From positions 12,843-76,842 of the forward strand of contig CAVSUX010000008.1 in NCBI GenBank assembly GCA_963731145.1: a stretch of DNA of 64,000 bases. The letters are read 5' to 3'. The notes below the pieces were generated by a model. The model was not told where the DNA came from, searched no databases, and saw only the letters and a list, made by a program, of their open reading frames with translations. Below, piece by piece: positions 1,565 to 48,624 of this stretch. Each line of letters begins with the position of its first letter. Position 1 is the first letter of the stretch. Both the position numbers and the translations under genes were made by a program. Source of the DNA: an uncultured Alphaproteobacteria bacterium (GTDB lineage: Bacteria; Pseudomonadota; Alphaproteobacteria; ATCC43930; CGMCC-115725).

Positions 1565-2548
1565 TTGCCAGCCATGGTAGATGCTGCATTAATGAACACT
1601 ACTGCTGGGGCAAATTCGCGGCGTCAGCGTCTGGCTGATATCCTGTTCCGCGGCACCACGCAGGTCTTTGCCATCGGCGTCCTGGTCCTTTTGGGCGCGG
1701 TCATGCTGTCGCTGCTGATCGGCGGTCTGCCGGCTTTCCAAGCCTTCGGCGTCGCCTTTCTCTGGGGCGATGTCTGGAACCCGGTGAAGCAGATTTTCGG
1801 CGGCTGCGCCGGCGATCTACGGCACCTTCGTCACGCTCGCTGATCGCCATGGTCATCGGCGTACCGCTCGCCCTCGGCGTCGCCATGTTCCTGACCGAGC
1901 TTTGCCCGCCCTTCCTGCGCCGACCGATCGGCATCCTGATCGAGCTTCTCGCCGCCATTCCCAGCATCATCTACGGCATCTGGGGCCTTTTCGTCCTCGC
2001 GCCCTTCCTGCAGATGACGGTGCAGCCCTTCCTCAAGGAGACGCTCGGCAATATCCCGATCATCGATTTCCTCTTCCGCGGGCCGCCGCTCGGCATCGGC
2101 ATGTTGACCGCCGGCTTCATCCTCGCGGTCATGGTGCTGCCCTTCATCGCCGCGGTGACGCGCGACGTGTTCCTGACGGTGCCGCCGATCCTGCGCGAAA
2201 GCGCCTATGGCATCGGCCTGTACCACCGCGGAGGTCGTGCGCGATATCGTCCTGCCCTACACGCGTGTCGGCGTCGTCGGCGGCGTCATGCTCGGCCTCG
2301 GCCGCGCGCTTGGCGAGACCATGGCCGTGACCTTCGTGATCGGCAATGCGCATCGCGTCAGCAGCTCGCTGCTTGCGCCCGGCACTACGATTTCGGCGAC
2401 ACTCGCCAATGAATTCAGCGAGGCAGTCGGCCCGCTCTACATCCCGTCGCTGATCCTTTTGGGCTTCATCCTGTTCATCATCACCTTCTGCGTATTGGCC
2501 GCGGCGAAGCTGCTGCTGCTGCGCCTCGACCAGCAGGCCGCGAAATGA
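1565..2548 (+). pseudogene. pstC: phosphate ABC transporter permease PstC, at least 2 frame switches
   Basis: ORF pieces 1565-1843, 1849-2412 and 2207-2548 lie in three frames and join into one PstC-like permease ([20 protein letters not shown]). The stop overlaps the pstA start. Confidence 0.9.
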
Positions 2549-3393
2549 CGATCTACAACCGCCGCCGCGCGACCAACCTCGTCATCCTGACGCTCTCGCT
2601 CTGCGCGACCGGCCTCGGCCTGCTCATCCTGTTCCTGATTCTCGGCGCGCTGCTCTATAACGGCGTTCCGGCGCTGACGCCGAGCACTTTCACTCAGGCG
2701 ACGCCGGCGCCCGGCAATCAGGGCGGGCTCAGCAACGCCATCTTTGGCAGCATCGTCATGACGGCAGTCGCGACACTGGTCGGAACGCCGGTCGGCGTCC
2801 TCACCGGCACCTATCTCGCCGAATATGGCCGCGGCACCTGGCTCGCGCCGGTCGTACGCTTCGTCAACGACATCCTCTTGAGCGCGCCGTCGATCGTGAT
2901 CGGCGTGTTCGTCTACACCCTGGTCGTCGTGCCGATGGGCCATTTCTCGGCCTGGGCGGGATCGATCGCCCTCGCGATCCTGGTCGTGCCGGTGGTCGTG
3001 CGCACCACCGAGGACATGCTGAATTTGGTGCCGTCGGGGCTGCGCGAAGCCGCCTTCGCCCTTGGCACGCCGGGCTGGAAGGTCGTCGTCATGGTGACCT
3101 ACCGCGCCGCGCTGCAGGGCATGATGACCGGCGTGATGCTGGCCGTAGCGCGCATCGCCGGCGAGACCGCGCCGCTGCTCTTCACGGCCCTCAATAATCA
3201 GTTCTCCAGTGCCAATATGAATGGACCGATGGCCAACCTTCCGGTCGTGATCTTTCAATTCGCCATGAGCCCCTATGCCGATTGGCAGCGCCTCGCCTGG
3301 GGCGGCGCGCTGCTTATCACCTTCGCGATCCTTTTCCTCAACATCGTCGCGCGGTTCCTGGCAAACTGGAGTGGAGGCTCAACCAGCCGATGA
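2545..3393 (+). CDS. pstA: phosphate ABC transporter permease PstA
   Basis: Intact 282-aa ORF with multiple hydrophobic segments and the permease loop [14 protein letters not shown]. It is overlap-coupled to pstC and to pstB (ATGA). Confidence 0.93.
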
Positions 3394-4253
3394 CAATCGA
3401 TGTGAAGCCCGTGGAAACCCCAACCCAAAGCCCCGCTCGCCCGCCGCTCGGCTCCGCGCCGATGGTGTCTGTCAATCACACCGCCGAGCGCGGCGTGCCG
3501 CAGACCAAGGTCGTGATCAAGGATTTGCGCTTCTATTACAGGAATTACGAAGCGCTCAAAGGCATCAACATCGAGCTCTACGACCGCCGCGTCACCGCGT
3601 TCATCGGCCCGTCGGGCTGCGGAAAGTCGACGCTGCTGCGCATCCTCAACCGCATCTACGATCTCTATCCCGGCCAGCGCGCCACCGGCCAGGTGCTGGT
3701 CGATGGCCACGACATCCTCGACGCGCGCCAGGATCTCAACCTGCTGCGCGCGCGCATCGGCATGGTGTTCCAGAAGCCGACGCCGTTCCCGATGTCGATC
3801 TACGACAACATCGCGTTCGGCATTCGCCTCTATGAGAAGCTCTCGGCGCAAGAGCTCGACAATCGCGTCGAGCAGGCGCTGCGCCGCGCCGCGCTCTGGG
3901 ACGAGGTGAAGGACAAGCTGAAGCAAAGCGGCCTCTCGCTCTCGGGCGGTCAGCAGCAGCGTCTTTGCATTGCCCGCGCCGTCGCGGTGAAGCCCGAGAT
4001 CCTGCTGCTCGACGAGCCGTGCTCGGCGCTCGATCCGCTGTCGACGCAGCGCGTCGAGGAGCTGATCGCCGAGTTGAAGTCGGACTACACGATCGCGATC
4101 GTCACGCACAACATGCAGCAGGCGGCGCGCAGCTCGGACTACACCGCCTTCATGTATCTCGGCCAGCTCATCGAATTCGACGAGACCGAGGCCATCTTTA
4201 CGCATCCGAAGGAACGCCAGACGGAAGACTACATCACCGGCCGCTTCGGCTGA
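3390..4253 (+). CDS. pstB: phosphate ABC transporter ATP-binding protein PstB
   Basis: Walker [10 protein letters not shown], signature LSGGQQQRL, Walker B LLLDEP. I chose the ATG at 3390, which overlaps the pstA stop, over the upstream ORF start at 3282. Confidence 0.95.
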
Positions 4254-4286
4254 GTGGGGCGGTCGGTCGGAAGGAGCGAAGGATCA

Positions 4287-4996
4287 ATGGTCGCCGAACA
4301 CATCATCAAGAGCTACGACCAGGAGCTGCAGCGGCTCGACAATTCGATCGCCGAGATGGGCGGCATGGCGGAAAGCCAGCTCGCCGCCGCGATCGACGCG
4401 GTGTCGAAGCGCGATGGCGATCTCGCCACCAGCGTCATCGAGGCCGACGGCAAGGTCGACGAGCTGGAGCATGAGGTCGAAGCGCAAGTCGTGCGGCTTC
4501 TGGCGCTGCGCCAGCCGATGGCGCGCGATCTTCGCCAGATCGTCGCCGCGCTCAAGACCTCGACCGATCTGGAGCGCATCTGCGATTACGCCGCGAATGT
4601 CGCCAAGCGCTCGCTGGTGCTCAATCAATCGGCGCCGGTGAAGCCGGTCTACGCGCTGCCGCGCATGGGCGCGGTGTGCCAAGCGCATGATCAAGGACAT
4701 GCTCGATGCCTATGTCGAGCGCGACGCCGACAAGGCCTTCGCGGTCTGGCTGCGCGACGAAGAGCTCGACGAGATGTATACGAGCCTCTTCCGCGAGCTT
4801 CTCACCTACATGATCGAGGATGCGCGCAACATCACGGCCTGCACGCATCTCCTCTTCATGGCCAAGAATCTGGAGCGCATCGGCGACCACACGACGAACA
4901 TCGCCGAGACGCTCTACTTCCTCGTCCACGGCAAGCCGCTGGCGCAGATCCGACCGAAACGCGACCGCACCGGTCGAGACGTCCGCCGCCGGATGA
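4287..4996 (+). pseudogene. phoU: phosphate signalling regulator PhoU, frame switch near 4680 and probably a second near 4970
   Basis: The N-terminal half is in ORF 4254-5024 (start at the internal ATG 4287 after GGAAGGAG). The second PhoU repeat (MIKDMLDAYVERD...NLERIGDHTTNIAE) is in ORF 4687-5313. The 3' end is uncertain (4996 or 5024). Confidence 0.85.
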
Positions 4997-5023
4997 TAAC
5001 GGCCACCAGGAGGACGTCGCCTG

Positions 5024-5893
5024 ATGCAGCCCCGCGTTCTCGTGGTCGAAGACGAAGCCGCACTGTTCACGCTCCTCCGCTACAATCTCGAGAAAGAAGG
5101 TTTTGCGGTCGCCGAGGCGCGCGACGGCGAGGAGGCGTTGCTCCATCTCAAGGAGGAAACGCCCGACGCCGTCCTGCTCGATTGGATGTTGCCGCGCGTG
5201 TCGGGGCTCGAGCTCTGCCGCCAGATCCGCCGCAGCTCGGCCTGGCGCGAAGTGCCGATCATCATGCTGACGGCGCGCGGCGAAGAGACCGACCGCGTGC
5301 GCGGCCTCGATAGCGGCGCCGACGATTACGTGGTGAAGCCCTTCAGCACCAGCGAGCTGGTGGCGCGGCTGCGCGCCGTGATCCGCCGCGCCCGCCCGGC
5401 CACCAATGCCGAAGTCTTGCGCTTCGGCGATCTCGCGCTCGATCTGTCGGCGCATCGCGTCAGCCGCGCCGGCCAGCCGATCCATCTCGGCCCGACCGAG
5501 TTCCGGCTGCTGCGCTTCTTCCTCGAGCGGCCGGGCCGCGTCTTCTCGCGCGAGCAATTGCTCGATGCGGTCTGGGGCCGTGACGCCGAGGTCGAACTGC
5601 GCACCGTCGACGTCCACATCCGCCGGTTGCGCAAGGCGCTCAACGAAGGCGGCCATAAGGACCTCGTCCGCACCGTCCGCGCCGCGGGCTACGCCCTCGA
5701 TCAAGGCGTCACGCGCGGTTCTGAGCGGCGTCGATTCTCGAGCGCCGTTACTGTCTCACGCCGCGCCGATCCGCTAGCTTTGCGCCGCACCATCGACAAG
5801 CGGAGAAGGCCGTGGCCGTTGCCGGCACACGCATCAAAGTGCCGGTCGCCGAGGTCATGGTCGAAGCCTATCGCGGGGTGTTCGGGCAGTTGA
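5024..5893 (+). CDS. phoB: phosphate regulon response regulator PhoB (OmpR family); the ORF runs about 60 aa past the conserved end
   Basis: Receiver domain (VVEDE, DWMLP, KPF) plus winged-helix output (TVDVHIRRLRKAL...VRTVRAAGYAL). The conserved part ends near 5705. The tail overlaps the next gene, so the true stop is uncertain. Confidence 0.9.
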   Translation: MQPRVLVVEDEAALFTLLRYNLEKEGFAVAEARDGEEALLHLKEETPDAVLLDWMLPRVSGLELCRQIRRSSAWREVPIIMLTARGEETDRVRGLDSGADDYVVKPFSTSELVARLRAVIRRARPATNAEVLRFGDLALDLSAHRVSRAGQPIHLGPTEFRLLRFFLERPGRVFSREQLLDAVWGRDAEVELRTVDVHIRRLRKALNEGGHKDLVRTVRAAGYALDQGVTRGSERRRFSSAVTVSRRADPLALRRTIDKRRRPWPLPAHASKCRSPRSWSKPIAGCSGS

Positions 5894-6637: not shown

Positions 6638-8731
6638 GGGCCGGAACCGGCGCGAGCCTTGCGGCATCGCGCCCGGCACCGAATAGGGCGCGGCGCGCGC
6701 CGGCGGATCGACCGAAGCACCGCCGAAGATACGATCGAGCAGATTGCGCAAACCCGAGAGCCGGCGGCCGGGCAGCCGCGCATTGGGCGCGCGGCGGCGG
6801 CACCGGCGCCGTAGCTGACCAGCGCCGGGGCACCCTCGCCCGGCAGCGGCTTGATCGGCATGCCGCGCGTCGCGACGGTCATGAAATCGTGCCAGGCATG
6901 CGCCGGTATCGTGCCGCCGGTGACTTTCTTCATCGGCGAATTGTCGTCATTGCCGAACCACACGCCGCAAACCAGATCGGCGGTGTAGCCGATGAAGAGC
7001 GCGTCGCGCGAATCCTGCGTCGTGCCGGTCTTGCCTGCCGCCGGGCGATCGAGCTTCGCGGCCTTGCCGGTGCCGTAGGCGATCAACGCCGGACAGAAGC
7101 TGGTTCATCGATCGCGACATTCGCGGGATCGATGACGCGGCCCGGCCCTGAGCCGTCGCGGCGATAGATCACCCCGCCATGCGCATCGCGAATCTCGACG
7201 ATGCCATAGGGCCAGGCGCCGATACCGCCCGAGGCAAAGGGCGCGTAAGCGGCGGTCAGCTCGATCAGCGAGACTTCGCTGGTGCCGAGGGCGAGGCTCG
7301 CATCATGCGCGAGATCGGCGGTGATGCCGAGCTTGCGCGCGGTCGCGATCACGTTGTTGACGCCGACGCGCTGCACGATCTGGGCCGCGACGCTGTTGAG
7401 CGAGAGTCGCGATCGCTTCCGAGACGGTGACGTCGCCGCGATATTTGTTCTCGAAATTATGCGGCTCCCATTTGCCGATCCGGATCGGCTGATCGATGAA
7501 ATGATCGCTCGGCCTGAGGCCACGCTCGATCGCCGCGAGATAGACCACCGGCTTGAAGGACGAGCCCGGCTGGCGCAGCGCCTGGGTCGCGCGATTGAAC
7601 TGGCTGTCGGCGTAATCGTCGCCGCCGACCATGGCGCGGATCGCGCCGTCGGGCGTCATCGCCACCAGCGCGCCCTGGCCGACCTCGTATTTGTCGCCGT
7701 TGCGATCGAGCGAATCGGAAATCACTTTCTCGCCCGCCGCCTGCATCTTCGGATCGAGCGTGGTGGTGACGACGAGATCGCGGTCTTGCGTGCCGCTGAA
7801 GCCGTCGATCTGATCGACGATCCAATCGGCGAAATAGCGGCTGCCGCGGCTGAGGCTCGGCGTCTTGGCGAGCTGCGTCTTCTGCTGCGCCGCGGCCTGC
7901 GCCTGCGCCGTGGTGATGAAGCCGGCATCGACCATATTGGCGAGCACCTGCTCGGCGCGCTGCGCCGCGCGCTCCTTGTCGTTCGCCGGCGAGAAGCGCG
8001 ACGGCGCCTTCAAGCAGGCCGGCGATCACGGCCGCCTCGTAGAGCGAGACGTCGCGCGCCGATTTGTCGAAATAGCGATGCGCCGCGGCATCGACGCCGT
8101 AGGTGCCGGCGCCGAGATAGACGCGGTTGAGATAGATTTCGAGAATCTGCTGCTTGGAAAATTTATGCTCGAGCCACAGCGCGAGCAGCGTTTCCTGGAT
8201 CTTGCGCGTGAAGGTGCGGTCGGGCGTGAGGAACAGATTCTTCGCGAGCTGCTGCGTGATCGTGCTGCCGCCCTGGACGACGTGACCGGCGCGCAGATTG
8301 GCGAAGGTGGCGCGCAAGAGGCCGATCGGATCGACGCCGAAATGGCTGTAGAAGCGGCGGTCCTCGGTCGCGATCACCGCCGCCGGCAGGTATTTCGGCA
8401 TCTCCTTGAGCCGCAAGCGGCTCGCCGAAGAGATCGCCATAGGTCGCGATCATGGTGCCGTCGCTGGCGAGAAGCGTGATGCTGGGCTTGCGCTGCGCCA
8501 GGGTGAGATCGCCGGTATCGGGCAAAGTGAGGGCGAAGAAGCCGATCACGCCCATGCCGGCGATGAAGCACCAAAGCCCGGCGAGCAGCGGAAGCGCAAG
8601 AGGCCGCCGCGACGCGCCGCGCTGCCGGCGCTGGCCGTTGCCGCCCCTACCGTCGGCCTGGCTGGGCGCTTGGAAGCACCACCGCGCGCGGTAGCGCGCG
8701 TATCGCGATCGCCGGTGGACCGCCGCGTCAT
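6623..8731 (-). pseudogene. class A penicillin-binding protein (PBP1A-type transglycosylase/transpeptidase), at least 6 frame switches
   Basis: Glycosyltransferase-51 motifs (EDRRFYSHFGVDP, GGSTITQQLAKN) are in ORF 7457-8440. The transpeptidase part (RQPGSSFKP, KTGTTQD) is in ORFs 7303-8013 and 6535-7086. The N-terminal membrane anchor is in ORFs 8546-8845 and 8163-8555. Confidence 0.85.
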
Positions 8732-8883: not shown

Positions 8884-10167
8884 GTGGCGAAAGCGATGCC
8901 GCAACCTAAGCGAGCGGATTTGCTGACCGCCGCGTTAATCTTCGCCGCGACCTATCTCATCGTCGCGCTCGGCCGGCTGCCGTTCCTGCGGCTGGACCGC
9001 GCCGGCGCCGCTCTGCTCGGCGCGGCACTGATGGTGGCGAGCGGGACCCTGTCGCTCGACGAGGCCTATCGCGCGATCGATTTCGGCACGATCACCTTGC
9101 TGCTCGGCATGATGCTGATCGTCGCTCATCTGCGGCTCTCGGGCTTTTTCACCTCGGTGACCGCCTTCGTCGCCCGCCGCGCGCGAGGCGCCGCTGTTCC
9201 TGCTCGGCGCGATCATCGTCTTCACCGGCGTGCTGTCGGCCTTCCTCGTCAACGACGCGGTGTGCCTGATGCTGACGCCGCTGGTGATCGAGACGACGAA
9301 GCGGCTCGGTCGCCGCCCGCTGCCCTATCTGCTGGCGCTCGCCATGGCCTCGAATATCGGCAGCGTCGCGACGATCACCGGCAATCCGCAGAACATGATG
9401 ATCGGCAGCTTCTCGCACCTGCCTTACGCCAGCTTTCGCCGCCGCGCTGACGCCGATCGCGGCGCATGGGCCTTATCGTGCTGTTCGCGGCGATCGCCGC
9501 CTTTCATCCGCGCGACTTCTTTCGCGCCGACGATCCCGGCAGCGCCACACTGCAGCCGCGCGTCCACCCGGCGCTGCTCGCGGCCGCGCTCGGCGCGACG
9601 GTGCTGGCGATCATCGGATTTTTCGCCGGCATCGCACCGGCGAAGGTCGCGATCGTGCTCGGCGCGCTGCTGTTGCTTACTCCGATCAAGCCGCAGCGCG
9701 TTTATCGCGAGATCGACTGGTCGCTGCTGTTGCTCTTCGTCGGCTTGTTCATCGTGCTGGCCGGCGCCGAGAAAGCGCTGCTGACGCCGGCGGTACGCGA
9801 TGCGGTCGCGAATGCGCGGGCTTGGCGCGCGTGACCGGTGCTGACGGTCATCGCCGCGGTGCTGTCCAATCTCGTCAGCAACGTGCCGGCGGTGCTGGTG
9901 CTGGCGCCGTTCCTGCGCGGCATCGCCGATCCCGACCGCGCCTGGCTGGTGCTGGCGATGGCATCGACCTTCGCCGGCAATTTCACGATTTTGGGCTCGG
10001 TCGCCAATCTGATCGTGGTCGAGCAAGCACGCCGGCAGGCGGTCGATATCGGTTTCTGGGCCTATTTCCGCATCGGCGCGCCACTGACCTTGGCGACACT
10101 GGCGCTCGGCGCCTGGTGGCTGCGCCAAATAAAAAGGCCGCGCAAGCATCGCGTGCGCGGCCCGTGA
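8884..10167 (+). pseudogene. ArsB/NhaD-superfamily anion permease (YbiR-like), at least 3 frame switches
   Basis: Four hydrophobic ORF pieces (8884-9450, 9230-9784, 9466-9834, 9838-10167) carry motifs such as SNIGSVATITGNPQN and FTILGSVANLIV. Confidence 0.7.
10127..10162 (-). terminator. intrinsic terminator downstream of rpoH
   Basis: Minus strand reads GGCCGCGCA-loop-TGCGCGGCC followed by TTTTTATTT. It lies in the convergent junction with the permease gene and overlaps that ORF's last codons. Confidence 0.65.
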
Positions 10168-10183: not shown

Positions 10184-11055
10184 TCACGCCGCGATGCGCT
10201 CCGGCGGCCGCGTCGATGTGTTGGCGGCGACCGCTTTCTGCAGCTTCTCGACCGCGCGCACCTCGATCTGGCGGATGCGCTCGCGCGACACCGCGTATTT
10301 GTGCGAGAGCTCTTCGAGCGTTGCCGGCTCGTCCTTCAGGCGCCGCTCGACCACGATCTCGCGCTCGCGCGGATTGAGCTTCTTCAGCGCGGCACCGAGC
10401 AGGCTGCGCCGACGGCGGCCTTCCTCGATATCGCCGATCACGTTTCCTGCGACGGCCGCTCATCGGGCAGAAGCTCGAGCCATTCGCTGTCGGCGTCGCC
10501 GCCGAGCATCGCGTTGAGCGAGTTGTCGACGCCGCCGAGGCGACGGTTCATCTCGATCACTTCGCTTTCCGGCACGGCGAGATCCTTGGCGATCGTCGCG
10601 ACGGTCTCGGGCGAGAGATCGCCTTGCTCGAATTGCTCGAGCTTGGCCTTGAGGCGGCGCAGATTGAAGAACAGCTTCTTCTGCGCGGCGGTCGTGCCGA
10701 TCTTCACCAGCGACCACGAGTGGAGGATGTATTCTTGAATCGCGGCGCGGATCCACCACATCGCGTAGGTCGCGAAGCGGAAGCCGCGCTCCGGCTCGAA
10801 TTTCTCGGCCGCCTGCATCAGGCCGATATTGCCTTCGGCGACGAGATCGGCGAGCGGCAAGCCATAGCCGACGAAGCCGCGCGCGATCTTCACGACGAGA
10901 CGCAGATGGCTGCCGACGAGCTCGTCGAGCGCCGCGCGGTCGCGCCGCTCACGCCACGCGGTTGCGATCTCGCGCTCGCGCTCCGGCGTCAGCATCGGAT
11001 AGCGCTTGGCCTCTTCGACGAAGCGGGTGAGTGTTGAATCAAGCTTGACGTTCAT
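10184..11055 (-). pseudogene. rpoH: RNA polymerase sigma-32 heat-shock factor RpoH, frame switch near 10440
   Basis: ORF 10438-11190 (start at the internal ATG 11055) contains the RpoH box AQKKLFFNLRRLK. Region 4 (LEELSHKYAVSRERIRQIE) continues in ORF 10184-10441. Confidence 0.9.
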
Positions 11056-11309: not shown

Positions 11310-12367
11310 CTAGAGCGACAGGTCGAGCTTGGCCTGGTTCGCCTTTTCGGCGTTATCTTGTTGTTCTTCCTGCTTTTTTAGCTGCTTCGTACTTGTTGAG
11401 TGCGTCGATCATCTTCTGCGCGATCGCCTTCTGATCGGGCATCGCAGCCCGGGCCGGTTCCGCGGCCTGAGCTGGCTGGAAGGAGCAGCGCCTGGCGTGT
11501 TGCGTTGGGCCGGCCTGGTCAGAGGTGTGTCGGGCCGAGCGAGAGATGGCCGCCTGCCGGCATGACCGGCAGGAGGTTGCTGCTCAGCTCGAGCGGCACG
11601 GGTGGTTGTTGAGTACCGCCCCGTTGGTGCCGCGGCCTTGACTGATTTGGTGCTGGAACTGCGAAGCCTGCGCCGTGAAGGCCTGTTCGGGCGTGGCCGG
11701 TGGTACTGGCGGCGCCGAGCGGTAGAGCTGGTTCATCGGCGACAGGCTGCGGCGGCATCGGGGTCAGCGCCTGCGGCACGGATGGCTGGACCGCAGCGGC
11801 GGCCGGGGTGGAGTTCGTTGGCGCCGAAGCCGAGGCGACGCTGCGCGCCGGCGGGGCCGTGACCGACCGCGCTGGCGGCACATAGCTTAGCGGCTTGGCC
11901 GGGCAGGGTCCGCGGCCGACTCTGGCTCGCGACCGCCGGCTGATTCCGGCATTGCGGGGTTGCGGGTTGGCCATCCGCGGTCGCGACTTGTGGCGTGCCG
12001 ACGGTCGGGCTTCGCTGTCGTGGTCGCGCGAGCCGAACACATCGGCGAGCAGACGCTCACCGAGATCATGGCCGCCGCGGAATCGGTCAGCAAGAGCGGT
12101 CGAGACGACGCTGACGCCGAAGCCGATCGGGCCGCCATAAAGCGCATCGCCGATGACGCGCGTGCCGGCCGCGGGTTCGTCGCCGGTCAGATAGCGATAG
12201 ATCGAGCCGACGACCGGCAGATGCTGGAGCGGGTTGACGATGTCGAGCAGGTCCTTGAACGAGAAACTGCCATGCGACCACATCGAGCGGCCGAGCGGCG
12301 CCGACGATGGGGACGCCGGCGGCGCGCTGAGGGCGGTTGGGGCCGCGGTGGCGGCGACGTCGGACAC
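11310..12367 (-). pseudogene. hypothetical Ala/Pro-rich protein, frame-disrupted at the 3' end
   Basis: ORF 11519-12367 has a conserved-looking N-terminus (FSFKDLLDIVNPLQHLPVVGSIYRY). A C-terminal piece (PDQKAIAQKMIDALNKYEAAKK / QEEQQDNAEKANQAKLDLSL) is split at an A6 run (11374-11379). Confidence 0.45.
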
Positions 12368-12540: not shown

Positions 12541-13656
12541 CTAGAGCAGATGGCCGCCGCGGATCGCCTTGGTGCGCAGATAGCGCTCGTTATGCTCGTT
12601 CGCCGGAAAGGCGTGCGGCACGCGCTCGACCACATCGATGCCGCATTGCGCGAGCGCCGCGACCTTCTCGGGATTGTTGGTCAGGAGCCGCACCTTGTTG
12701 AAGCCCAATTGCTTGAGCATCGCCGCCGCCGGGAGATAGACGCGCTCATCGGCATCGAAGCCCAAGAGCTCGTTGGCGTCGATCGTATCGAAGCCGGCAT
12801 CCTGCAGCTCGTAGGCGCGCAGCTTGTTGGCGAGGCCGATGCCGCGGCCTTCTTGCGAGAGATAGAGCACCGCGCCGCCGCCGCTCTTCGCGATCTCGGC
12901 GATCGCGCCGCGCAGCTGGTCGCCGCAATCGCAGCGCAGGCTGCCGAGCAGATCGCCGGTGAAGCATTCGGAATGGAGCCGCACCAGCACCGGCTGCGCC
13001 GGATCGGGATCGCCGATGACGATCGCGATATGACCGACACCGCCGTCGCGCGGCCGGAAATGCACGAGCCGCGTATTCTCCGCATCCGCCAGCGGCACGC
13101 GCGCCTCGCTGACGATCTCCATGCTGTGCGAGGCTTCGGCTTCGTAAGCGAAGATATCGTCGGCCGCGACGGCAAGCACATCTTCGCTCTTGGCGATGCG
13201 CTTCGCCGCGGCCGGTGTCAGCGAGACGATGACCGCCGCCGGCAAAAGCCGCGTCAGCTTCACCAGCTCGATCGCCGCATCGACGAGGCGATCGCCATCG
13301 GGTGCCGCGACGCCGAGACCCGCGACGGCCGCGCCGGGATCGGCGAGCGTATGGACGAAATGCGGTTGCGTATCGCGCGGCAGCGCCAGCACGCTCGAGC
13401 CGCGCGGCTCGCTCGGCATCGCGGTAAGGCCGAGCGCGGCGGCACGGCGGCGGGTAAGAGCGAGCGATAGCTTGCCGCGGCCCAACGCCGCGAGTTGCGC
13501 AAGGCTCGCGGTGGTCGCGGTCTCGGCCGCTTGCAACGCCAGCGCCGCGCTATCGCCTTCGACGATCGCGATCAGGCCGCGGCGCAGATCGCCGATCACG
13601 CGATCAACTCGACGCAGCAAATGCGTGTCCTTGGGTTCGGGCTCGGAAATACTCAA
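12541..13656 (-). CDS. GTP cyclohydrolase II (RibA-type) with a roughly 170-aa N-terminal extension
   Basis: The C-terminal half has RibA motifs (RLHSECFTGDLLGSLRCDCGDQL, SQEGRGIGLANKLRAYELQDAGFDTIDAN). I took the TTG at 13656, which overlaps the upstream stop. An ATG at 13701 is an alternative. The 552-aa ORF extension beyond that is read-through. Confidence 0.85.
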   Translation of the reverse strand: MSISEPEPKDTHLLRRVDRVIGDLRRGLIAIVEGDSAALALQAAETATTASLAQLAALGRGKLSLALTRRRAAALGLTAMPSEPRGSSVLALPRDTQPHFVHTLADPGAAVAGLGVAAPDGDRLVDAAIELVKLTRLLPAAVIVSLTPAAAKRIAKSEDVLAVAADDIFAYEAEASHSMEIVSEARVPLADAENTRLVHFRPRDGGVGHIAIVIGDPDPAQPVLVRLHSECFTGDLLGSLRCDCGDQLRGAIAEIAKSGGGAVLYLSQEGRGIGLANKLRAYELQDAGFDTIDANELLGFDADERVYLPAAAMLKQLGFNKVRLLTNNPEKVAALAQCGIDVVERVPHAFPANEHNERYLRTKAIRGGHLL

Positions 13657-14255
13657 ACCACCGCCTCTTTTTTCTCGCCGGCACGGCGCGCCAACAGCCA
13701 TGCCGCGTCGACCGCAAAGGAATAGACCAGCACCGCGAATGCGGCGAGGCAAAGCGGGCTCGCCAATTCGGACGGCACGCTCGGCACCACGGCCAGGATC
13801 AGCGCCGCTATTTGTGCAACGCAGATGGCCTGGCGGCGCTTTCTCGGCGGCAAGGGCGCCGCCAAAGCCGGCCAAACCCAGCTTCCTCCGACAAAGATAT
13901 AGCGCATCAGGCCGATTGCCAGTACCCAGGGCCCCGCCTGATCGCAGAGCCAGACGAGAAGACTGAGCCCAAGCACCGTCGCAGCATCGGTTTCCATATC
14001 GAAACGCGCACCGAAAGCACTTTCCTGTCGCAGCCGCCGCGCCAGACAGCCATCGACGCCATCGAGCGCCAGCGCGCCCAGCGCGCCCACGACCCAGAAC
14101 CAGCGCAATGTCGGACCCGGCAAGTACCCCGCCGTCAGCGCCCACACTCCGTAGCCAAGGAGACACGCGGCATAAACGGCGCGGGCGGCGGTTACCCAAT
14201 TCCCGGCGCCGAAGGGCTGCGGGATCGTTGCTCGCGAAAAATTGTTTCTACTCAA
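13653..14255 (-). CDS. CDP-alcohol phosphatidyltransferase family protein
   Basis: Intact 200-aa hydrophobic ORF with the family motif DGVDGCLARRLRQESAFGARFDMETDA (DG..AR..G...D...D). Its stop overlaps the start of the GTP cyclohydrolase II gene. Confidence 0.8.
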   Translation of the reverse strand: MSRNNFSRATIPQPFGAGNWVTAARAVYAACLLGYGVWALTAGYLPGPTLRWFWVVGALGALALDGVDGCLARRLRQESAFGARFDMETDAATVLGLSLLVWLCDQAGPWVLAIGLMRYIFVGGSWVWPALAAPLPPRKRRQAICVAQIAALILAVVPSVPSELASPLCLAAFAVLVYSFAVDAAWLLARRAGEKKEAVV

Positions 14256-14433
14256 TGACCAATCCCTGCCTCATTATGCGTTGTTCGGGGAAGCCTTAGC
14301 ATGGCCGCGGAAGGAGACATAAGAGGGCGCAGCGAAGCGCAGTGGCGAGCAGTGCTCGCCAACCGGCGCGGCGCACCGCTCGGCAGTATCGGCGCGGGCG
14401 AGACTCGAGGCGCTCTATGGCCCGCTTTGCGCC

Positions 14434-15078
14434 GTGGCGCCGGGGCAGAGCTTCGCCGTGGCGCATCTGGCACAAAGCCTCGACGGCAAGATCGCGGCGA
14501 CGAACGGTGCGTCGCGCTGGATTTCGGGCGAGGACGATCTTTGCCATACCCATCGCATGCGCGCCCTGGCGGACGCCGTTGTCGTCGGTGCCGATACGGT
14601 GTTGCATGACGATCCTATGCTGACGGTGCGGCGCTGCAGCGGCACGCATCCAGTACGTGTCGTCATTGATCCCGAACGGAAGCTCGAGGCACATCACAAG
14701 CTGTTTACCGACCGCAGCGCGCGCACGATCGTGATCGCGTCCGCCGACCGGCATAACGGCGACGCCGCGCCGGATGTCGAGACGATCCTGCTGCCGCGGA
14801 CGGATTCGGTAATTGCACCGAAGGCGATCCGCGCCGCGCTCGCCGCGCGCGGGCTCTATTGGCTCTTCATCGAAGGCGGCGGCGTCACGATCTCGAACTT
14901 CCTGCGCGAAGGGTGCCTCGACCGGCTGCAGATCACGGTCGCGCCCGTCATTCTCGGCTCGGGCCGGCCGAGCATCACCTTGCCGCCGATCAGCGAGCCG
15001 GGTCTTGGCCTGCGCCCGCCGATCCGCCGCCTGTCGCTCGGCGCCGACATGCTCTTCGAGTGCATCTTCGGCCTTTGA
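14434..15078 (+). CDS. RibD C-terminal-domain (pyrimidine reductase / DHFR-like) family protein
   Basis: HLAQSLDGKIA, RMRALADAVVVGADTVLHDDPMLTVR and FIEGGGVTISNFL are typical of the RibD reductase domain. No deaminase domain is present. It may extend to 14301 through a frame switch near 14400. Confidence 0.75.
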   Translation: MAPGQSFAVAHLAQSLDGKIAATNGASRWISGEDDLCHTHRMRALADAVVVGADTVLHDDPMLTVRRCSGTHPVRVVIDPERKLEAHHKLFTDRSARTIVIASADRHNGDAAPDVETILLPRTDSVIAPKAIRAALAARGLYWLFIEGGGVTISNFLREGCLDRLQITVAPVILGSGRPSITLPPISEPGLGLRPPIRRLSLGADMLFECIFGL

Positions 15079-15093
15079 GATGAGCGATGCCCG

Positions 15094-16077
15094 ATGAGCG
15101 ATGAAGTGGGGCGCGCTTTCTGGCTCGTCGCGCCCGGCCATGGCGAGATTCGCACCGCAGCACCTCCCTGCGCCCGGCGCGAACGACGTTCTGGTGCGCG
15201 CCGGCGCCAGCGCGATCAGCCGCGGCACCGAGAGCCTCGTCTTCCTGGGCCGCGTGCCGCCGAGCGAATATCAGACGATGCGCTGCCCGTTCCAGGAGGG
15301 CGAATTTCCCGGCGCCGGTGAAATACGGCTATGCCTCGGTCGGCATCGTCGAAGCGGGACAAGCGGCGCTGCGCGGCCGGCGCGTCTTCTGCCTTTATCC
15401 GCATCAGGATCTCTACGTCGTGCCGGCCGACGCCGTCGTGCCGGTGCCGGACGACGTGCCCGATGAGCGCGCGGCACTCGCCGCGAATATGGAGACCGCG
15501 CTCAACGCGATGTGGGATGCGGGACCGCGTCTCGGCGATCGCATCGCCGTTGTCGGCGCGCGGCGTCGTCGGCTGCTTCATCGCGTCGCTCGCCGCGAAA
15601 ATCCCGGGCACGCGAGTCGAGCTGATCGATATCGATCCGCGGCGCGAGCGCCTCGCCGCCGCGTTCGGCTGCCGCTTCGCCCTCGCCCGATGCGGCGACG
15701 CGGCGATTGCGATATCGTTTTCCATAGCAGCGCGCAGCGAGGCAGGTCTTGCGACGGCGCTGCGCCTCGCCGGTTTCGAGGCCAGGCTCATCGAGGTGAG
15801 CTGGTACGGCGACAAGCCCGTCGCCGTGCCGCTCGGCGAAGGCTTTCATCAGCGCCGCTTGCAATTGATCTCGTCGCAGGTCGGCGCCGTGGCGCAAGCA
15901 CGCCGCGCCCGCCGGACACACCGCGAGCGGCTGGGCTTGGCGCTGGCATTGCTCGCCGATCCGGTCTACGACCGGCTCATCACCGGGCACTGCACGCTCG
16001 ACGCGCTGCCGCAGCGCATGGCACAGCTCGCCGCCGCGCCGGATGGCGCGCTCGCCGAGATCGTCCTTTATCGCTGA
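15094..16077 (+). pseudogene. zinc-type / medium-chain dehydrogenase-reductase family protein, at least 3 frame switches
   Basis: Pieces in ORFs 15094-15321, 15101-15466, 15318-16700 and 15331-16077 ([28 protein letters not shown], a GVVG nucleotide-binding region). Confidence 0.7.
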
Positions 16078-16088
16078 GGTCTCGAGAT

Positions 16089-16494
16089 ATGTACACGCTT
16101 ACCGTCAGCGATCACGTGATGATCGCGCATAGCTTCGTCGGCGAGATTTTCGGTCCGGCGCAGCGCCTGCACGGCGCGACTTATGCGGTCGAGATGGAAG
16201 TGCGCCGCGACCGAGCTCGATGCCGACGGTCTCGTCTGCGATATCGGCAAGGCGCTCGACACGCTGAAAGTCGTGCTCGGCGAGATCAATTACCGCAATC
16301 TCGACGATCTGCCGGCATTCAAGGGCCGCAACACCACGACCGAATTCCTGGCCGGCGAGATTTTCCGCCGCCTCAAGACACGCGTCGCGGCGGGCGCGCT
16401 GGGCGACGGCACCGCGGGAGCGCTCACGGCGATGCGCATCACTCTGCGCGAATCGCCGGTCGCCTGGGCGGCGTTCGAGGGATCGTTGGTGTGA
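16089..16494 (+). pseudogene. 6-pyruvoyl-tetrahydropterin synthase / QueD-fold family protein, frame switch near 16205
   Basis: [16 protein letters not shown]...[13 protein letters not shown] is followed in another frame by [35 protein letters not shown]. The usual HGH motif reads HGA here. Confidence 0.75.
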
Positions 16495-17550
16495 AGCTCG
16501 CGCTGATCGTTCCCGGGCCGATCGATCAGGTCACCGGCGGCTATCTCTTCGCGCGCCGCATCGTCGATGGGCTGCGCGCGGGCGGCGACGATGTCACGGT
16601 GCGTCGAGCTCGCCGGCCAATTTCCCGAGGCGGATGCGACAGCGCGTCGAAGCAGCGGCACGCGCGCTCGCCGAATTGCCCGACGGCGCGATCGCGGTGA
16701 TCGACGGACTGGCCTGCTCAGGCTTCAGCGATTGTCTCGCCGAGGAAACGCCGCGGCTGCAAGCTCGATCGGCTTCGTCCATCACGCGCTCGCCGACGAG
16801 ACCGGATTGACGGTCGACGAGATCGCACGTTTTCGGGCAGCCGAGCGGCGTCTGCTGCCGTTGCTGCGCGGCGTCGTCTGCCCGAGCCCGAACACCGCCG
16901 ATGTGCTCATCGACTACGGCGTCGCGCCCGAACGCATCGCGGTCACGCCGCCCGGCACGACAAGAGCCGTATCCGCGCGCAAGCGCGAGAAATTCAGCCG
17001 CCCGCTCCGTCTGCTCTCCGTCGCCACCATCACGCCGCGCAAGGGCCATCGCTTGCTGATCGAGGCGCTCGCCGAGCATCGACCGCGAGACTTGGCGGCT
17101 TCGATTGCATCGGCAGCCTGACGCGCGATCCGATTGCGTCGCCGCGCTGCGCGCGCTGATCGCGCGCCATCGCCTCGAGACGAATGTCCGTCTGCTCGGC
17201 GAGCGTCAGCCGCGAGCAATTGCCGCTCGCCTATGACGAAGCCGATCTCTTCGTGCTGCCGTCGTTTCACGAAGGCTACGGCATGGCCTATCGCCGAGGC
17301 GCTTGCTTACGGTCTGCCGATCGTCGCGACCACCGCCGGCGCCATTCCCGACACCGTGCCGGAGAGCGCCGGGCTCCTCGTGCCGCCGGGCGATGTCGCC
17401 GCGCTGCGCGGCGCGCTCAGCCGCGCGATCACCGATCGCGAGCTGCTCGCGACACTGAACGAAGGCGCACGCCGCGCCGGCGCCGCGCTGCCCGATTGGC
17501 CGCAAGCCGTCGGGCAATGGCGCGACGCGGTGATGCGGCTCGCCGCATGA
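16491..17550 (+). pseudogene. group-1 (GT4-like) glycosyltransferase, many frame switches
   Basis: GTG start overlaps the preceding stop (GTGA). The C-terminal part has the typical EADLFVLPSFHEGYGMAY..EALAYGLPIVATTAGAIPD. Confidence 0.75.
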
Positions 17551-18451
17551 GCGAGCGCTTCGCGCTCGACTGGCTGACGGCTGCGCGAAAGCGCCGATCT
17601 CGCCGCGCGTAGCCCGACACTCGCACGTAGCTTCGCCGCCGCGCTGCCGGCGACACGGCCGCTGCGGCTCATCGATCTCGCCGCCGGCAGCGGCGCCAAT
17701 ACGCGCGCGCTGCTGCCGCGCATTTCCGGCGATCAGCATTGGCGCTTGATCGATCACGATCGCGATCTTCTCGCCGCGCAAGGCGAGGAATTCACGCTCT
17801 GGGCGCGGCGGCAGGGTTATCCGATCACCGCCGGCGGCGGCCGCGTGTCGATCGAGGCACGGCCGGCACATTGGCAGATCGAAGCGATGCCGCTCGATCT
17901 CGATCGCGATTTCGCGACGCTCGCGGAATTGGAATTCGACGGCATCACCGCCGCATCCTTCTTCGATCTCGTCTCGCAGGAATGGATCGAGCGCTTCGTC
18001 GCGCTGCTCGCCGATCGCGGCCCGTGCCGTTCCTCGCCGCGCTGACCGTCGATGGCCGGCGCGAATGGCGGCCGCGTCTCGATGACGATGCGCTGATCGC
18101 CGATGCCTTCGCCGCGCATCAGCGTCGCATCAAGGATTTCGGCCCGGCGCTCGGCGGCGCCGCGCCCGACACGATGGAAGCGTCGCTGCGGCGGAGCCGG
18201 ATTCCGCGTCGAGCGCGTCGCGAGCGATTGGCGGCTAGGTACTGGGCGATGAGGGACCGCGCGACGACATGCTGCTCGCCGCGCTGATCGCGGGCGAGGC
18301 CGGCGCCGCGCGCGAAGCGGCGCCCGACGCCGCCGACCGGATCGACGGCCTGGGAAAGGCGCGCCGCGCCCTTCTCGCCGAAGGGATTCTGAGCCTCACC
18401 GTCGGCCATTGCGACCTCTGGCCTTGCCTGCTTAAATACCGGCCGGCATGA
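17547..18451 (+). pseudogene. class I SAM-dependent methyltransferase, several frame switches
   Basis: ATG overlaps the glycosyltransferase stop (ATGA). Motif I-like LRLIDLAAGSGAN, with the remainder spread over at least 4 frames. Confidence 0.6.
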
Positions 18452-18480: not shown

Positions 18481-18765
18481 ATGGCAAAAGCGATGTGGCA
18501 CGGCAAGGTGCTCGCCGAGAGCCCGAGCTTCGAGATCGTCGAAGGCAATGTCTATTTCCCGCCCGAGACGATCGACAAACGCTTTTTCAAGGACAGCGCG
18601 ACCACGACTCAGTGTCATTGGAAAGGCACGGCACACTATTTCACCGTCGCGATCGATGGCGCCGAGAATAAGGACGCGGCGTGGTATTATCCCGAGCCGC
18701 TGCCCGCTGCTGCGCAGATCAAGAACTACGTCGCCTTTTGGAAGGGCGTCGAGGTCGAGCGCTAG
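18481..18765 (+). CDS. DUF427 domain protein
   Basis: Intact small ORF with GGAGG 7 nt upstream. The sequence WHGKVLAESPSFEIVEGNVYFP...CHWKGTAHYF...AAWYYPEP resembles DUF427 as I recall it. Confidence 0.8.
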   Translation: MAKAMWHGKVLAESPSFEIVEGNVYFPPETIDKRFFKDSATTTQCHWKGTAHYFTVAIDGAENKDAAWYYPEPLPAAAQIKNYVAFWKGVEVER

Positions 18766-42108: not shown

Positions 42109-42183
42109 GCGGGCGTAGCTCAGGGGTAGAGCACAACCTTGCCAAGGTTGGGGTCGAGGGTTCGAATCCCTTCGCCCGCTCCA
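42109..42183 (+). tRNA. tRNA-Gly (anticodon GCC)
   Basis: GCGGGCG acceptor pairs with CGCCCGC. D arm GCTC/GAGC. Anticodon stem CAACC/GGTTG with loop TTGCCAA (GCC at 42141-42143). T arm GAGGG-TTCGAAT-CCCTT. Encoded CCA. Confidence 0.95.
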
Positions 42184-48443: not shown

Positions 48444-48508
48444 TCAGACCTCCTCGATGAACGGCGGACAACCAGCAGCCCGCCCGGCAGCTCACGCCGC
48501 CGTGCACC

Positions 48509-48572
48509 GTAGGAGTTATCAGCCCGCCAAGATCGGAAGATCGGCGGGCGGTTTTGGGGGAACCCCATCCCC
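48509..48572 (-). promoter_or_regulatory. fluoride riboswitch (crcB RNA motif)
   Basis: Minus strand GGGGAUGGGGUUCCCCCAAAACCGCCCGCC-14 nt-GGCGGGCUGAUAACUCCUAC. This matches the conserved GG.GAUG..GUUC..CC...AAC.GCC...GGCUGAU...CCUAC pattern, including pseudoknot partners GGGGUU and AACUCC. It lies about 65 nt upstream of the crcB ATG, with GAGGAGG between them. Confidence 0.85.
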
Positions 48573-48624
48573 ATCGACGCCTGATCAAGCCAGGCGCCGC
48601 GGCAATTCAATTGCTTTGGTTACT

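Follow-up and report, generated by a model that had tools for sequence, protein, structure and literature searches.

We propose, with a probability of about 0.5, that seven adjacent genes in a 64,000-nucleotide stretch of DNA from an uncultured alphaproteobacterium (the whole stretch is referred to below as the window) are one working copy of an orphan biosynthetic module, widely conserved and centred on the PTPS-IV protein, and that their sequence was damaged by assembly-type indels. The product would be a GTP-derived diaminopyrimidine or pterin-like polyol phosphate that is glycosylated, methylated and joined through a phosphodiester, probably to a phosphatidyl group. The genes form two divergent units, one encoding a GTP cyclohydrolase II (GCH II) and a CDP-alcohol phosphatidyltransferase family protein (CDP-OH transferase), and the other a RibD_C-type reductase, a dehydrogenase, PTPS-IV, a GT4 glycosyltransferase and a protein with the predicted fold of an S-adenosylmethionine (SAM) methyltransferase (Table 1). 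That these genes specify a conserved tailoring pathway for a GTP- or diaminopyrimidine-derived compound is highly probable in our view. A lipid end product is suggested tentatively, and closure of a pterin ring is doubtful.

The principal evidence is the recurrence of the same genes together. A search of representative proteins with PTPS-IV returned 1378 clusters (50% identity, E < 1e-3), and a scan of one genome per species found the protein in at least 597 genomes. The best 80 loci came from Alpha-, Beta- and Gammaproteobacteria, Acidobacteriota, Gemmatimonadota, Myxococcota and Actinomycetota, with Variovorax, Hydrogenophaga, Chromohalobacter, Inquilinus, Streptomyces and Amycolatopsis among the cultured carriers. 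For the 55 loci with full flanks (at least 18 kb), a gene was counted as present if it lay no more than 10 kb from PTPS-IV. All 55 encoded GT4 directly downstream of PTPS-IV and 54 encoded the dehydrogenase directly upstream; the methyltransferase was present in 51, and the order dehydrogenase-PTPS-IV-GT4-methyltransferase was near-invariant. RibD_C was found in 45 of the 55 loci, GCH II in 26, and one or the other in 50. The CDP-OH transferase (43/55) was usually divergent and upstream of the operon. All seven genes were present in 18 of the 55 loci. Two long Stellaceae contigs carried all seven genes intact and in the same order, and shared with the window the flanking sigma-32, CitMHS, PBP1A, pst-phoU-phoB, DUF427 and OmpR-type regulator genes. 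In a distant locus of 46% GC content, GCH II, RibD_C, the dehydrogenase and PTPS-IV formed a single co-directional run; the contigs of distant PTPS-IV representatives were mostly too short to inform. From these data we conclude that the seven-gene set recurs together across at least five phyla, far beyond chance. An earlier note on this DNA had named absence of the set from other genomes as grounds for abandoning its proposal, and the same genes were found together in five phyla.

The PTPS-fold protein matched PF01242 and aligned over residues 1-133 with PDB entry 3D7J, 'Uncharacterized protein SCO6650' (E 8.3e-41). Once corrected for a frameshift, it contains the FGPAQ signature within an FGPAQ-x-LHGA motif. 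PTPS-IV has Ala at two positions of the QueD/PTPS motif CxxxHGH, that of the catalytic Cys and that of the third zinc His, and alignment to QueD confirmed that HGA stands in place of HGH, as had been read from the sequence. Among 30 diverse homologues, S15, F21-G22-P23-A24, H28, G29, T31, D51, E85 and E121 were invariant, A24 thus being fixed and A30 nearly invariant. On these residues and on the match to SCO6650 we place the window protein in the PTPS-IV subfamily of COG0720/PF01242 (SCO6650 type). The structure of SCO6650 is said to contain no zinc and to have a pocket suited to a pterin-like ligand, the protein reportedly having no PTPS activity; structural and biochemical work on SCO6650 and its linked GCH II paralogue reportedly dates from 2006-2008. 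The FGPAQ motif defines PTPS-IV in a 2017 paper (PMC5445326), which also described PF00925 and PF01872 in the neighbourhood of PTPS-IV. Both of these families are present in the window.

A separate observation concerns six proteins (P0245, P0250, P0263, P0278, P0336 and P0355) with three tandem PTPS-IV domains per chain of 373-855 amino acids. The three domains could form a pseudo-trimeric T-fold ring. Some of these proteins contained about 450 extra residues without a Pfam match, and one tandem locus had hardly any recognisable neighbours.

GCH II matched PF00925 (2.4e-58), and its catalytic domain matched E. coli RibA (2BZ0, 1.3e-55) with retention of the HSECxTGD...CDCG zinc motif and of the Tyr105 equivalent (RAYELQD). 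From the conserved zinc Cys motif and this Tyr, the enzyme is predicted to be active. It was 84% identical over its full length to the intact L002 copy; matches reached 93% identity, and the named ones were from Stellaceae metagenome-assembled genomes (Alphaproteobacteria, Rhodospirillales). The N-terminal extension of about 170 residues scored 24.5 bits against the Pfam DHBP_synthase profile, under the cut-off of 26.4. AlphaFold2 modelled it with a predicted local distance difference test score (pLDDT) of 84.7, and Foldseek aligned the model to DHBP synthase (RibB) structures with a template modelling (TM) score of about 0.6. Profile alignment to M. tuberculosis RibBA revealed that the acidic DRENEGD loop is missing. 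Because of the sub-cut-off score and the missing loop, we regard the extension as a degenerate RibB-like domain that is predicted to be dead. Among cluster-linked GCH II proteins, the Tyr105 equivalent was kept in every non-actinobacterial copy found. At four of five actinobacterial loci this position was Met (L080, L081) or His (L065, L076), and RibD_C is missing from these loci. Lineages may differ in their first pathway intermediate; the Met-form SCO6655 is said to make a formylated ring-opened product and not the diaminopyrimidine.

The reductase matched PF01872 (1.3e-40). No deaminase domain was detected in it, the 45-residue N-terminal region giving no deaminase match in Pfam or NCBIfam. 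Its nearest solved relative was the archaeal-type 2,5-diamino-6-ribosylamino-pyrimidinone 5'-phosphate (DARP) reductase 6P8C (4.5e-27); the values for 2AZN and for bacterial RibD were 1.6e-19 and about 1e-18, and the protein was under all NCBIfam cut-offs (112 versus 186 bits). Bacterial RibD has a Lys, and the archaeal enzymes have an Asn, at a position where 33 of 57 cluster-linked RibD_C proteins had His and 23 had Gln. The Lys of RibD is linked to substrate choice.

The dehydrogenase had no Pfam family above cut-off. Weak NCBIfam matches were to bchC (1.4e-12) and to polyol or threonine dehydrogenases, and the best PDB matches, confined to the Rossmann part, were L-iditol 2-dehydrogenase, idonate 5-dehydrogenase and ketose reductase. 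Homologues shared the motifs SRGTE, PVKYGY, PHQ and GxGxxG, and an acidic residue after beta-2. The last two features suggest that the enzyme uses NAD. Homologue alignment showed that canonical zinc Cys/His ligands are absent.

An intact GT4 orthologue matched Glycos_transf_1 and Glyco_trans_1_4 at 1e-29. The nearest solved relatives were the sucrose-phosphate synthase Tll1590 and the inositol-phosphate glycosyltransferase MshA, followed by PimB' and BshA, and the protein was thus closest to enzymes with phosphorylated sugar or polyol acceptors. The methyltransferase gave sub-threshold Pfam matches only, in the motif I region, and a PDB sequence search with it returned no match. A DLGAGSGAN motif is conserved. 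An orthologue was modelled by AlphaFold2 with a pLDDT of 94.4, and the top Foldseek matches were small-molecule SAM methyltransferases (TM 0.5-0.6); the class I SAM methyltransferase assignment is made on this predicted fold alone. Apparent PTPS-IV-GT4 fusion proteins had truncated PTPS parts and look like frameshift artefacts of overlapping genes, and were not used as evidence of fusion. At a Gemmatimonadales locus (L021) the GT4 and methyltransferase regions constituted a single open reading frame (ORF) of 706 codons, which may reflect a true gene fusion or an error of assembly.

The protein families proposed in the earlier note were largely borne out. PF01872 alone was detected in its RibD-C-type reductase lacking a deaminase, the RibA motifs that it called intact retain the zinc Cys and Tyr105 equivalents, and its 170-residue extension is present, with the RibB-like fold now predicted. 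Pfam profiles confirmed its GT4-like glycosyltransferase, and the predicted fold supports its class I SAM methyltransferase. Of its Zn/MDR-type dehydrogenase, a distant similarity to the MDR family stands, and the zinc type does not, as the canonical ligands are absent.

The CDP-OH transferase matched PF01066 (CDP-OH_P_transf) at 46.6 bits (cut-off 22). The window translation contains the complete D-x2-DG-x2-AR-x8-G-x3-D-x3-D motif as DGVDGCLARR-x6-G-x3-D-x3-D (motif stretch DGVDGCLARRLRQESAFGARFDMETD), which is conserved in 42 homologues. The best NCBIfam matches were weak and were to CDP-diacylglycerol enzymes (pgsA, PIP synthase, pssA, ClsA), all far under cut-off; the best, pgsA, scored 29.8 bits against a cut-off of 109. 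Identification as PgsA, PssA, PIP synthase or ClsA was rejected because no equivalog cut-off was reached. A PDB sequence search with the transferase found no match.

Membrane protein and tailoring genes accompanied the cluster at other loci. A polytopic membrane protein with a sub-threshold sulfatase/alkaline-phosphatase match was encoded at 33 loci, usually adjoining the transferase; a PDB search with it found no sequence match, and the profile search gave only E 0.11 to the uncharacterised 3LXQ. Flippase-like LPG_synthase_TM genes were found near the cluster at 10 loci, among them those of Streptomyces and Chromohalobacter, where they lie inside the operon. An FkbM-type methyltransferase was encoded at 19 loci. 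These three genes are absent from the window. Neighbouring genes for OpgH, YceI, sigma and anti-sigma factors, an ABC transporter and an amino-acid dehydrogenase were lineage-restricted or unrelated and were left out of the model.

In the pathway that we propose, GCH II, for which both the family and the catalytic residues are established, would open GTP to give 2,5-diamino-6-ribosylamino-4(3H)-pyrimidinone 5'-phosphate. Judging from its closest solved relatives, the deaminase-less RibD_C protein would reduce this compound to its ribityl equivalent, the reaction known from archaea and fungi. The zinc-less NAD-type dehydrogenase would then oxidise a secondary alcohol of the side chain, and the metal-free PTPS-IV may hold the 2-amino-4-oxopyrimidine via its invariant Glu and rearrange or cyclise the product. 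If C1' is first reduced and C2' then oxidised, the outcome would mimic the Amadori step carried out by GTP cyclohydrolase I (GCH I), and a dihydropterin ring could close. The MshA-like GT4 would glycosylate the polyol phosphate and the SAM methyltransferase would methylate it; in both cases the family is identified and the substrate is presumed. The CDP-OH transferase would make the phosphodiester, with CDP-diacylglycerol as the likeliest donor, yielding a new phospholipid head group. In other lineages the head group might be flipped by the flippase-like protein or passed on by the second membrane protein. The order of the PTPS-IV, GT4/methyltransferase and CDP-OH transferase steps is not fixed in this proposal. 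No cytidylyltransferase was seen in the examined clusters, so that CDP-diacylglycerol is the economical donor, and a phosphatidyl head group fits the flippase-like and membrane accessory genes of other lineages. The GTP-derived, glycosylated, methylated and possibly lipid-anchored product suggested in the earlier note is still the most economical reading, and those same genes add support to it.

A bolder version of the proposal is that the clusters make a new class of bacterial membrane phospholipid, whose head group is a glycosylated and methylated GTP-derived pterin- or diaminopyrimidine-polyol. Its ring would arise through GCH II, reduction, re-oxidation and metal-free T-fold cyclisation, bypassing GCH I, and some lineages would flip the head group and hand it on to envelope targets. 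We consider this version somewhat unlikely as a whole.

The same start could have a soluble end, a glycosylated and methylated pterin or diaminopyrimidine comparable to the pterin glycosides of cyanobacteria or Chlorobium, with the transferase making a small-molecule phosphodiester or serving a neighbouring function. A GT4 plus a methyltransferase is a known tailoring logic for pterin glycosides, the CDP-OH transferase was missing within 10 kb at 12 of the 55 loci, and it gave a weak NCBIfam match to the model of a soluble phosphodiester enzyme of the di-myo-inositol-phosphate type. However, in most loci and across phyla the transferase divergently adjoins the operon, no cytidylyltransferase accompanies it to supply a dedicated CDP-alcohol donor, and LPG_synthase_TM genes lie within the operon in Streptomyces and Chromohalobacter. 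A soluble product seems unlikely to us.

Several points weigh against the phosphatidyl-linked product that we prefer. The co-occurrence counts describe the 80 loci most similar to the query of at least 597 carriers, which are not a random sample. With GCH II within 10 kb at only 26 of the 55 loci, part of the case for a GTP origin has to come from RibD_C and from a housekeeping source. In Actinobacteria the cluster is usually without RibD_C and has GCH II with Met or His for Tyr, and the early steps may differ between lineages. The sulfatase-superfamily assignment of the accessory membrane protein is below threshold. A lipid product is not required, since CDP-alcohol transferases are also responsible for soluble phosphodiesters, di-myo-inositol phosphate among them. 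Lastly, a 2016 review places PTPS-IV in F420 synthesis, citing unpublished work (PMC5041015).

This review, the AGeNNT supplement, which ties PTPS-IV to riboflavin-type genes, and the presence of GCH II and RibD_C, the first two archaeal/fungal steps of riboflavin and FO synthesis, all favour a different explanation, namely that the cluster is an auxiliary or alternative route in riboflavin or deazaflavin (FO/F420) synthesis, with PTPS-IV supplying a missing step such as diaminopyrimidine processing. We judge this very unlikely. Neither the called genes nor the conserved neighbour families included a RibD deaminase, an active RibB, a lumazine or riboflavin synthase or any of CofG/H/C/D/E, the invariant glycosyltransferase and methyltransferase partners have no role in riboflavin or FO synthesis, and the flavin mononucleotide (FMN) riboswitch is absent. 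For lumazine and riboflavin synthase the called genes were those of L001, L002 and L084. A rib operon was rejected on the same grounds (no deaminase domain, a degenerate RibB domain, neither synthase, no FMN riboswitch), in support of the earlier note's statement that this is not a standard rib operon. F420/FO synthesis was rejected as a visible cluster, as there was no FO synthase (CofG/CofH, FbiC) or CofC/CofD/CofE among the Pfam-annotated genes of L001, L002 or L084 or in the conserved neighbour families of 82 loci; co-occurrence across whole genomes was not tested. The F420 claim for PTPS-IV gains no support from the gene contexts seen here.

Frameshift-aware alignment of intact orthologues to the window mapped 20 single-base indels among the plus-strand genes (1 in RibD_C, 5 in the dehydrogenase, 1 in PTPS, 8 in GT4 and 5 in the methyltransferase), and none in the minus-strand CDP-OH transferase and GCH II; the disruptions in five of seven genes noted earlier are thus present in the sequence. 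The same method identified 28 indels in 13.6 kb of flanking genes, including those for PBP1A (7), the CitMHS permease (5), PhoU (2), sigma-32 (1) and exonuclease III (1). Indel density was uneven everywhere, 3.4/kb in the cluster and 2.1/kb in the flanks. After single-base correction, every gene of the cluster and flanks could be read to its full length; in-frame stops and large deletions were absent. In local matches, corrected genes were about 50-85% identical to the Stellaceae orthologue, with the lowest values for GT4 and the methyltransferase. Over positions 2500-23300 as a whole, about 2 single-base indels per kb, mostly one extra base, were spread across many genes, housekeeping genes included.

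A decaying pseudogene array, in which the 20 frameshifts are real and no product is made in this organism, would account for five damaged genes out of seven and for the density in the plus-strand operon alone, about 4.8 indels/kb compared to about 2.1/kb in the flanks. However, the housekeeping neighbours (PBP1A, CitMHS, PhoU, sigma-32, exonuclease III) are likewise hit, the corrected genes are full length, uninterrupted and 50-85% identical to intact orthologues, and indel-only damage is the signature of long-read assembly error. We regard decay as extremely improbable. As the damage consists of indels only and housekeeping genes are also affected, it looks like assembly error and not pseudogenisation. 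The dead cluster allowed for in the earlier note is disfavoured, the disruptions not being specific to the cluster. The window comes from an apparently error-prone assembly, and ORF-based readings of it therefore need frameshift correction.

The layout of the functional copy that we propose is given in Table 1. The ORF list and profile searches confirmed all seven genes of the earlier note with their coordinates and domains. The reductase start fixes the divergent spacer at the shorter of its two proposed lengths, and the dehydrogenase starts at 15094 instead of at 15101. The overlap of the CDP-OH transferase TGA stop (13655-13653) with the GCH II TTG start (13656-13654) was found as described, as were the GTGA overlap joining PTPS-IV to GT4 and the ATGA overlap joining GT4 to the methyltransferase. 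Both promoters must overlap the spacer or sit within adjoining coding sequence. In an aligned 85-nt stretch that includes the spacer, the window and the Stellaceae-type loci L001 and L002 had 85% mean column identity, and the element CTCATTAT inside the spacer was invariant in all three. No match to a sigma-70 promoter consensus was found in the spacer, a promoter and terminator scan gave nothing exceeding shuffled expectation, and Rfam detected no riboswitch, FMN type included, between 11000 and 19500. Each of the seven genes was found only once in the window. For naming at the equivalog level we used NCBIfam release 20.0 (June 2026), which offered none of the seven proteins a fitting specific name of this rank; the only cut-offs passed were those of two generic models for GTP cyclohydrolase II, the subfamily model NF001591 and the equivalog-domain model TIGR00505. 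An anti-phage defence system was rejected, as six of the seven proteins had no match to PADLOC models and one had a marginal match (E 5e-4).

Table 1. Positions of the cluster genes, of neighbouring and other features of the window, and of examples at other loci (locus handle given before the position).
Feature	Position	Strand	Remarks
GTP cyclohydrolase II with putatively degenerate N-terminal DHBP-synthase-like domain	12541..13656	-	371 aa, TTG start, 0 indels
CDP-alcohol phosphatidyltransferase family membrane protein	13653..14255	-	200 aa, intact
Divergent intergenic spacer between the two units	14256..14300	.	45 bp
RibD_C-type reductase, no deaminase domain	14301..15078	+	~258 aa, one extra base near 14403
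Dehydrogenase, distant MDR-family similarity	15094..16077	+	~325 aa, five single-base indels
PTPS-IV, T-fold, SCO6650 type (by sequence)	16089..16494	+	134 aa, one extra base near 16209
GT4 glycosyltransferase	16491..17550	+	~350 aa, eight single-base indels
Class I SAM methyltransferase-fold protein (predicted)	17547..~18435	+	~290 aa, five indels; uncorrected last frame extends to 18451
pstA-pstB-phoU-phoB operon	2545-5719	+	phosphate regulation
PhoU	4287-5000		flanking gene
PBP1A	6656-8731		flanking gene
CitMHS permease	8920-10125		flanking gene
rpoH (sigma-32)	10187-11055		flanking gene
Pro/Ala-rich protein	11313-12367	-	~280 aa
DUF427 (PF04248)	18481-18765	+	
tRNA gene	42109-42180	+	Rfam
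Fluoride riboswitch (crcB motif)	48503-48581	-	Rfam, 51 bits, E 3e-11
Accessory gene example	L028:5890-7485	-	
Accessory gene example	L068:12187-13260	+	
Accessory gene example	L081:8350-9990	+	
Accessory gene example	L021:9340-10083	-	
GT4 and methyltransferase regions in one ORF	L021:4650-6770	+	706 aa, Gemmatimonadales
Tandem PTPS-IV locus	L088:1674-4241		

Other features of the window were also recorded. Between GCH II and rpoH lies a gene for a Pro/Ala-rich protein that has no family match and contains a conserved N-terminal segment, DLLDIVNPLQHLPVVGSIYRYLTGDE; the protein also adjoins the cluster in the Alpha- and Betaproteobacterial loci L001, L002, L004, L009, L012, L055 and L067. A DUF427 gene is located directly 3' of the methyltransferase gene. 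As this arrangement was restricted to Stellaceae and Skermanella loci (5 of 80), DUF427 is probably a lineage-specific neighbour. The phosphate-regulation operon is about 7 kb from the cluster, an arrangement shared by the two Stellaceae relatives. The fluoride riboswitch and the tRNA gene were the only Rfam matches above gathering score in the window.

The description of the cluster as an undescribed system, made in the earlier note, has to be narrowed. The homologous S. coelicolor protein SCO6650 has a crystal structure (PDB 3D7J), and both the PTPS-IV subfamily and its PF00925/PF01872 neighbourhood were published in 2017 (PMC5445326). A full-text literature search found no report of a product of the cluster and no functional characterisation. 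Minor PTPS classes were still without assignment in 2022 (PMC9894224), and a 2026 riboflavin review credits the third S. coelicolor RibA copy only with a new function that has nothing to do with flavins (PMC13151069). What appears to be new to the searchable literature is the near-invariant four-gene core, the link to the CDP-OH transferase and membrane accessory genes, the breadth across phyla and the specific pathway hypothesis. The orphan PTPS-IV is now tied to a near-invariant operon, a CDP-OH transferase and early riboflavin-type enzymes in at least five phyla. The pathway hypothesis is testable, and tractable cultivable carriers exist in Variovorax, Hydrogenophaga, Chromohalobacter, Inquilinus and Streptomyces. 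If the product were a pterin- or pyrimidine-bearing lipid or cofactor, it would represent a new branch of GTP metabolism, and a function would be gained for two protein families currently without a Pfam match above cut-off.

Among the known systems compared, queuosine/archaeosine synthesis was rejected because the CxxxHGH motif is missing, the QueD equivalog scored 39.9 against 89 bits and there were no radical-SAM/QueC neighbours. The tetrahydrobiopterin and pterin glycoside pathways were unmatched at their first steps, given the entry through GCH II, the lack of PF01227 (GCH I) in the neighbourhoods and the lack of Cx5HGH, and biopterin synthesis was rejected. The toxoflavin pathway was rejected because no ToxE-type deaminase-containing RibD was found; no profile specific for ToxC or ToxD was run. 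The mismatch of the cluster with queuosine, toxoflavin, F420 and methanopterin pathways, as asserted in the earlier note, was confirmed, and the biopterin gene set was likewise unmatched. The cluster resembles toxABCDE in its GCH II start, a RibD-type enzyme and a SAM methyltransferase. It differs in that its reductase has no deaminase, and the dehydrogenase, PTPS-IV, GT4 and CDP-OH transferase have no tox counterpart.

The pterin glycoside pathway comprises GCH I, PTPS, a reductase and a pteridine glycosyltransferase. The cluster is similar in combining a T-fold PTPS homologue with a GT-B glycosyltransferase and methylation, but its entry enzyme is GCH II and not GCH I, the catalytic Cys and a third zinc ligand are missing from its PTPS-IV, and a CDP-OH transferase is associated with the cluster. 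In pairing a CDP-OH transferase with a GT4 whose nearest solved relatives use inositol phosphate or phosphatidylinositol mannosides, it also recalls PIP synthase or PgsA together with PimA or MshA, which join a polyol phosphate to CDP-diacylglycerol and glycosylate it. In contrast to those systems, its presumed alcohol is GTP-derived and is not inositol or glycerol, and no equivalog cut-off was reached.

In the archaeal/fungal route, GTP cyclohydrolase is followed by the DARP reductase MjaRED/Rib7, such that reduction precedes deamination. The cluster likewise has a GCH II and a stand-alone RibD_C protein, the latter nearest to 6P8C and 2AZN. It differs from that route in that its reductase is below NCBIfam cut-offs and has His or Gln for the archaeal Asn, and no downstream riboflavin genes are present. 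The actinobacterial clusters are among the closest parallels. These differ from the window in three respects: the Tyr of the window GCH II is Met or His in theirs, they usually have a flippase-like gene where the window has RibD_C, and it is the window GCH II that bears the predicted dead RibB-like N-terminal domain. In the S. coelicolor SCO6650-SCO6655 region, SCO6650 aligns with the window PTPS-IV over its full length and is linked to the GCH II paralogue SCO6655. At a Streptomyces locus (L081) the CDP-OH transferase is divergent from a dehydrogenase-PTPS-IV-GT4-methyltransferase operon with GCH II downstream, the same arrangement as in the window.

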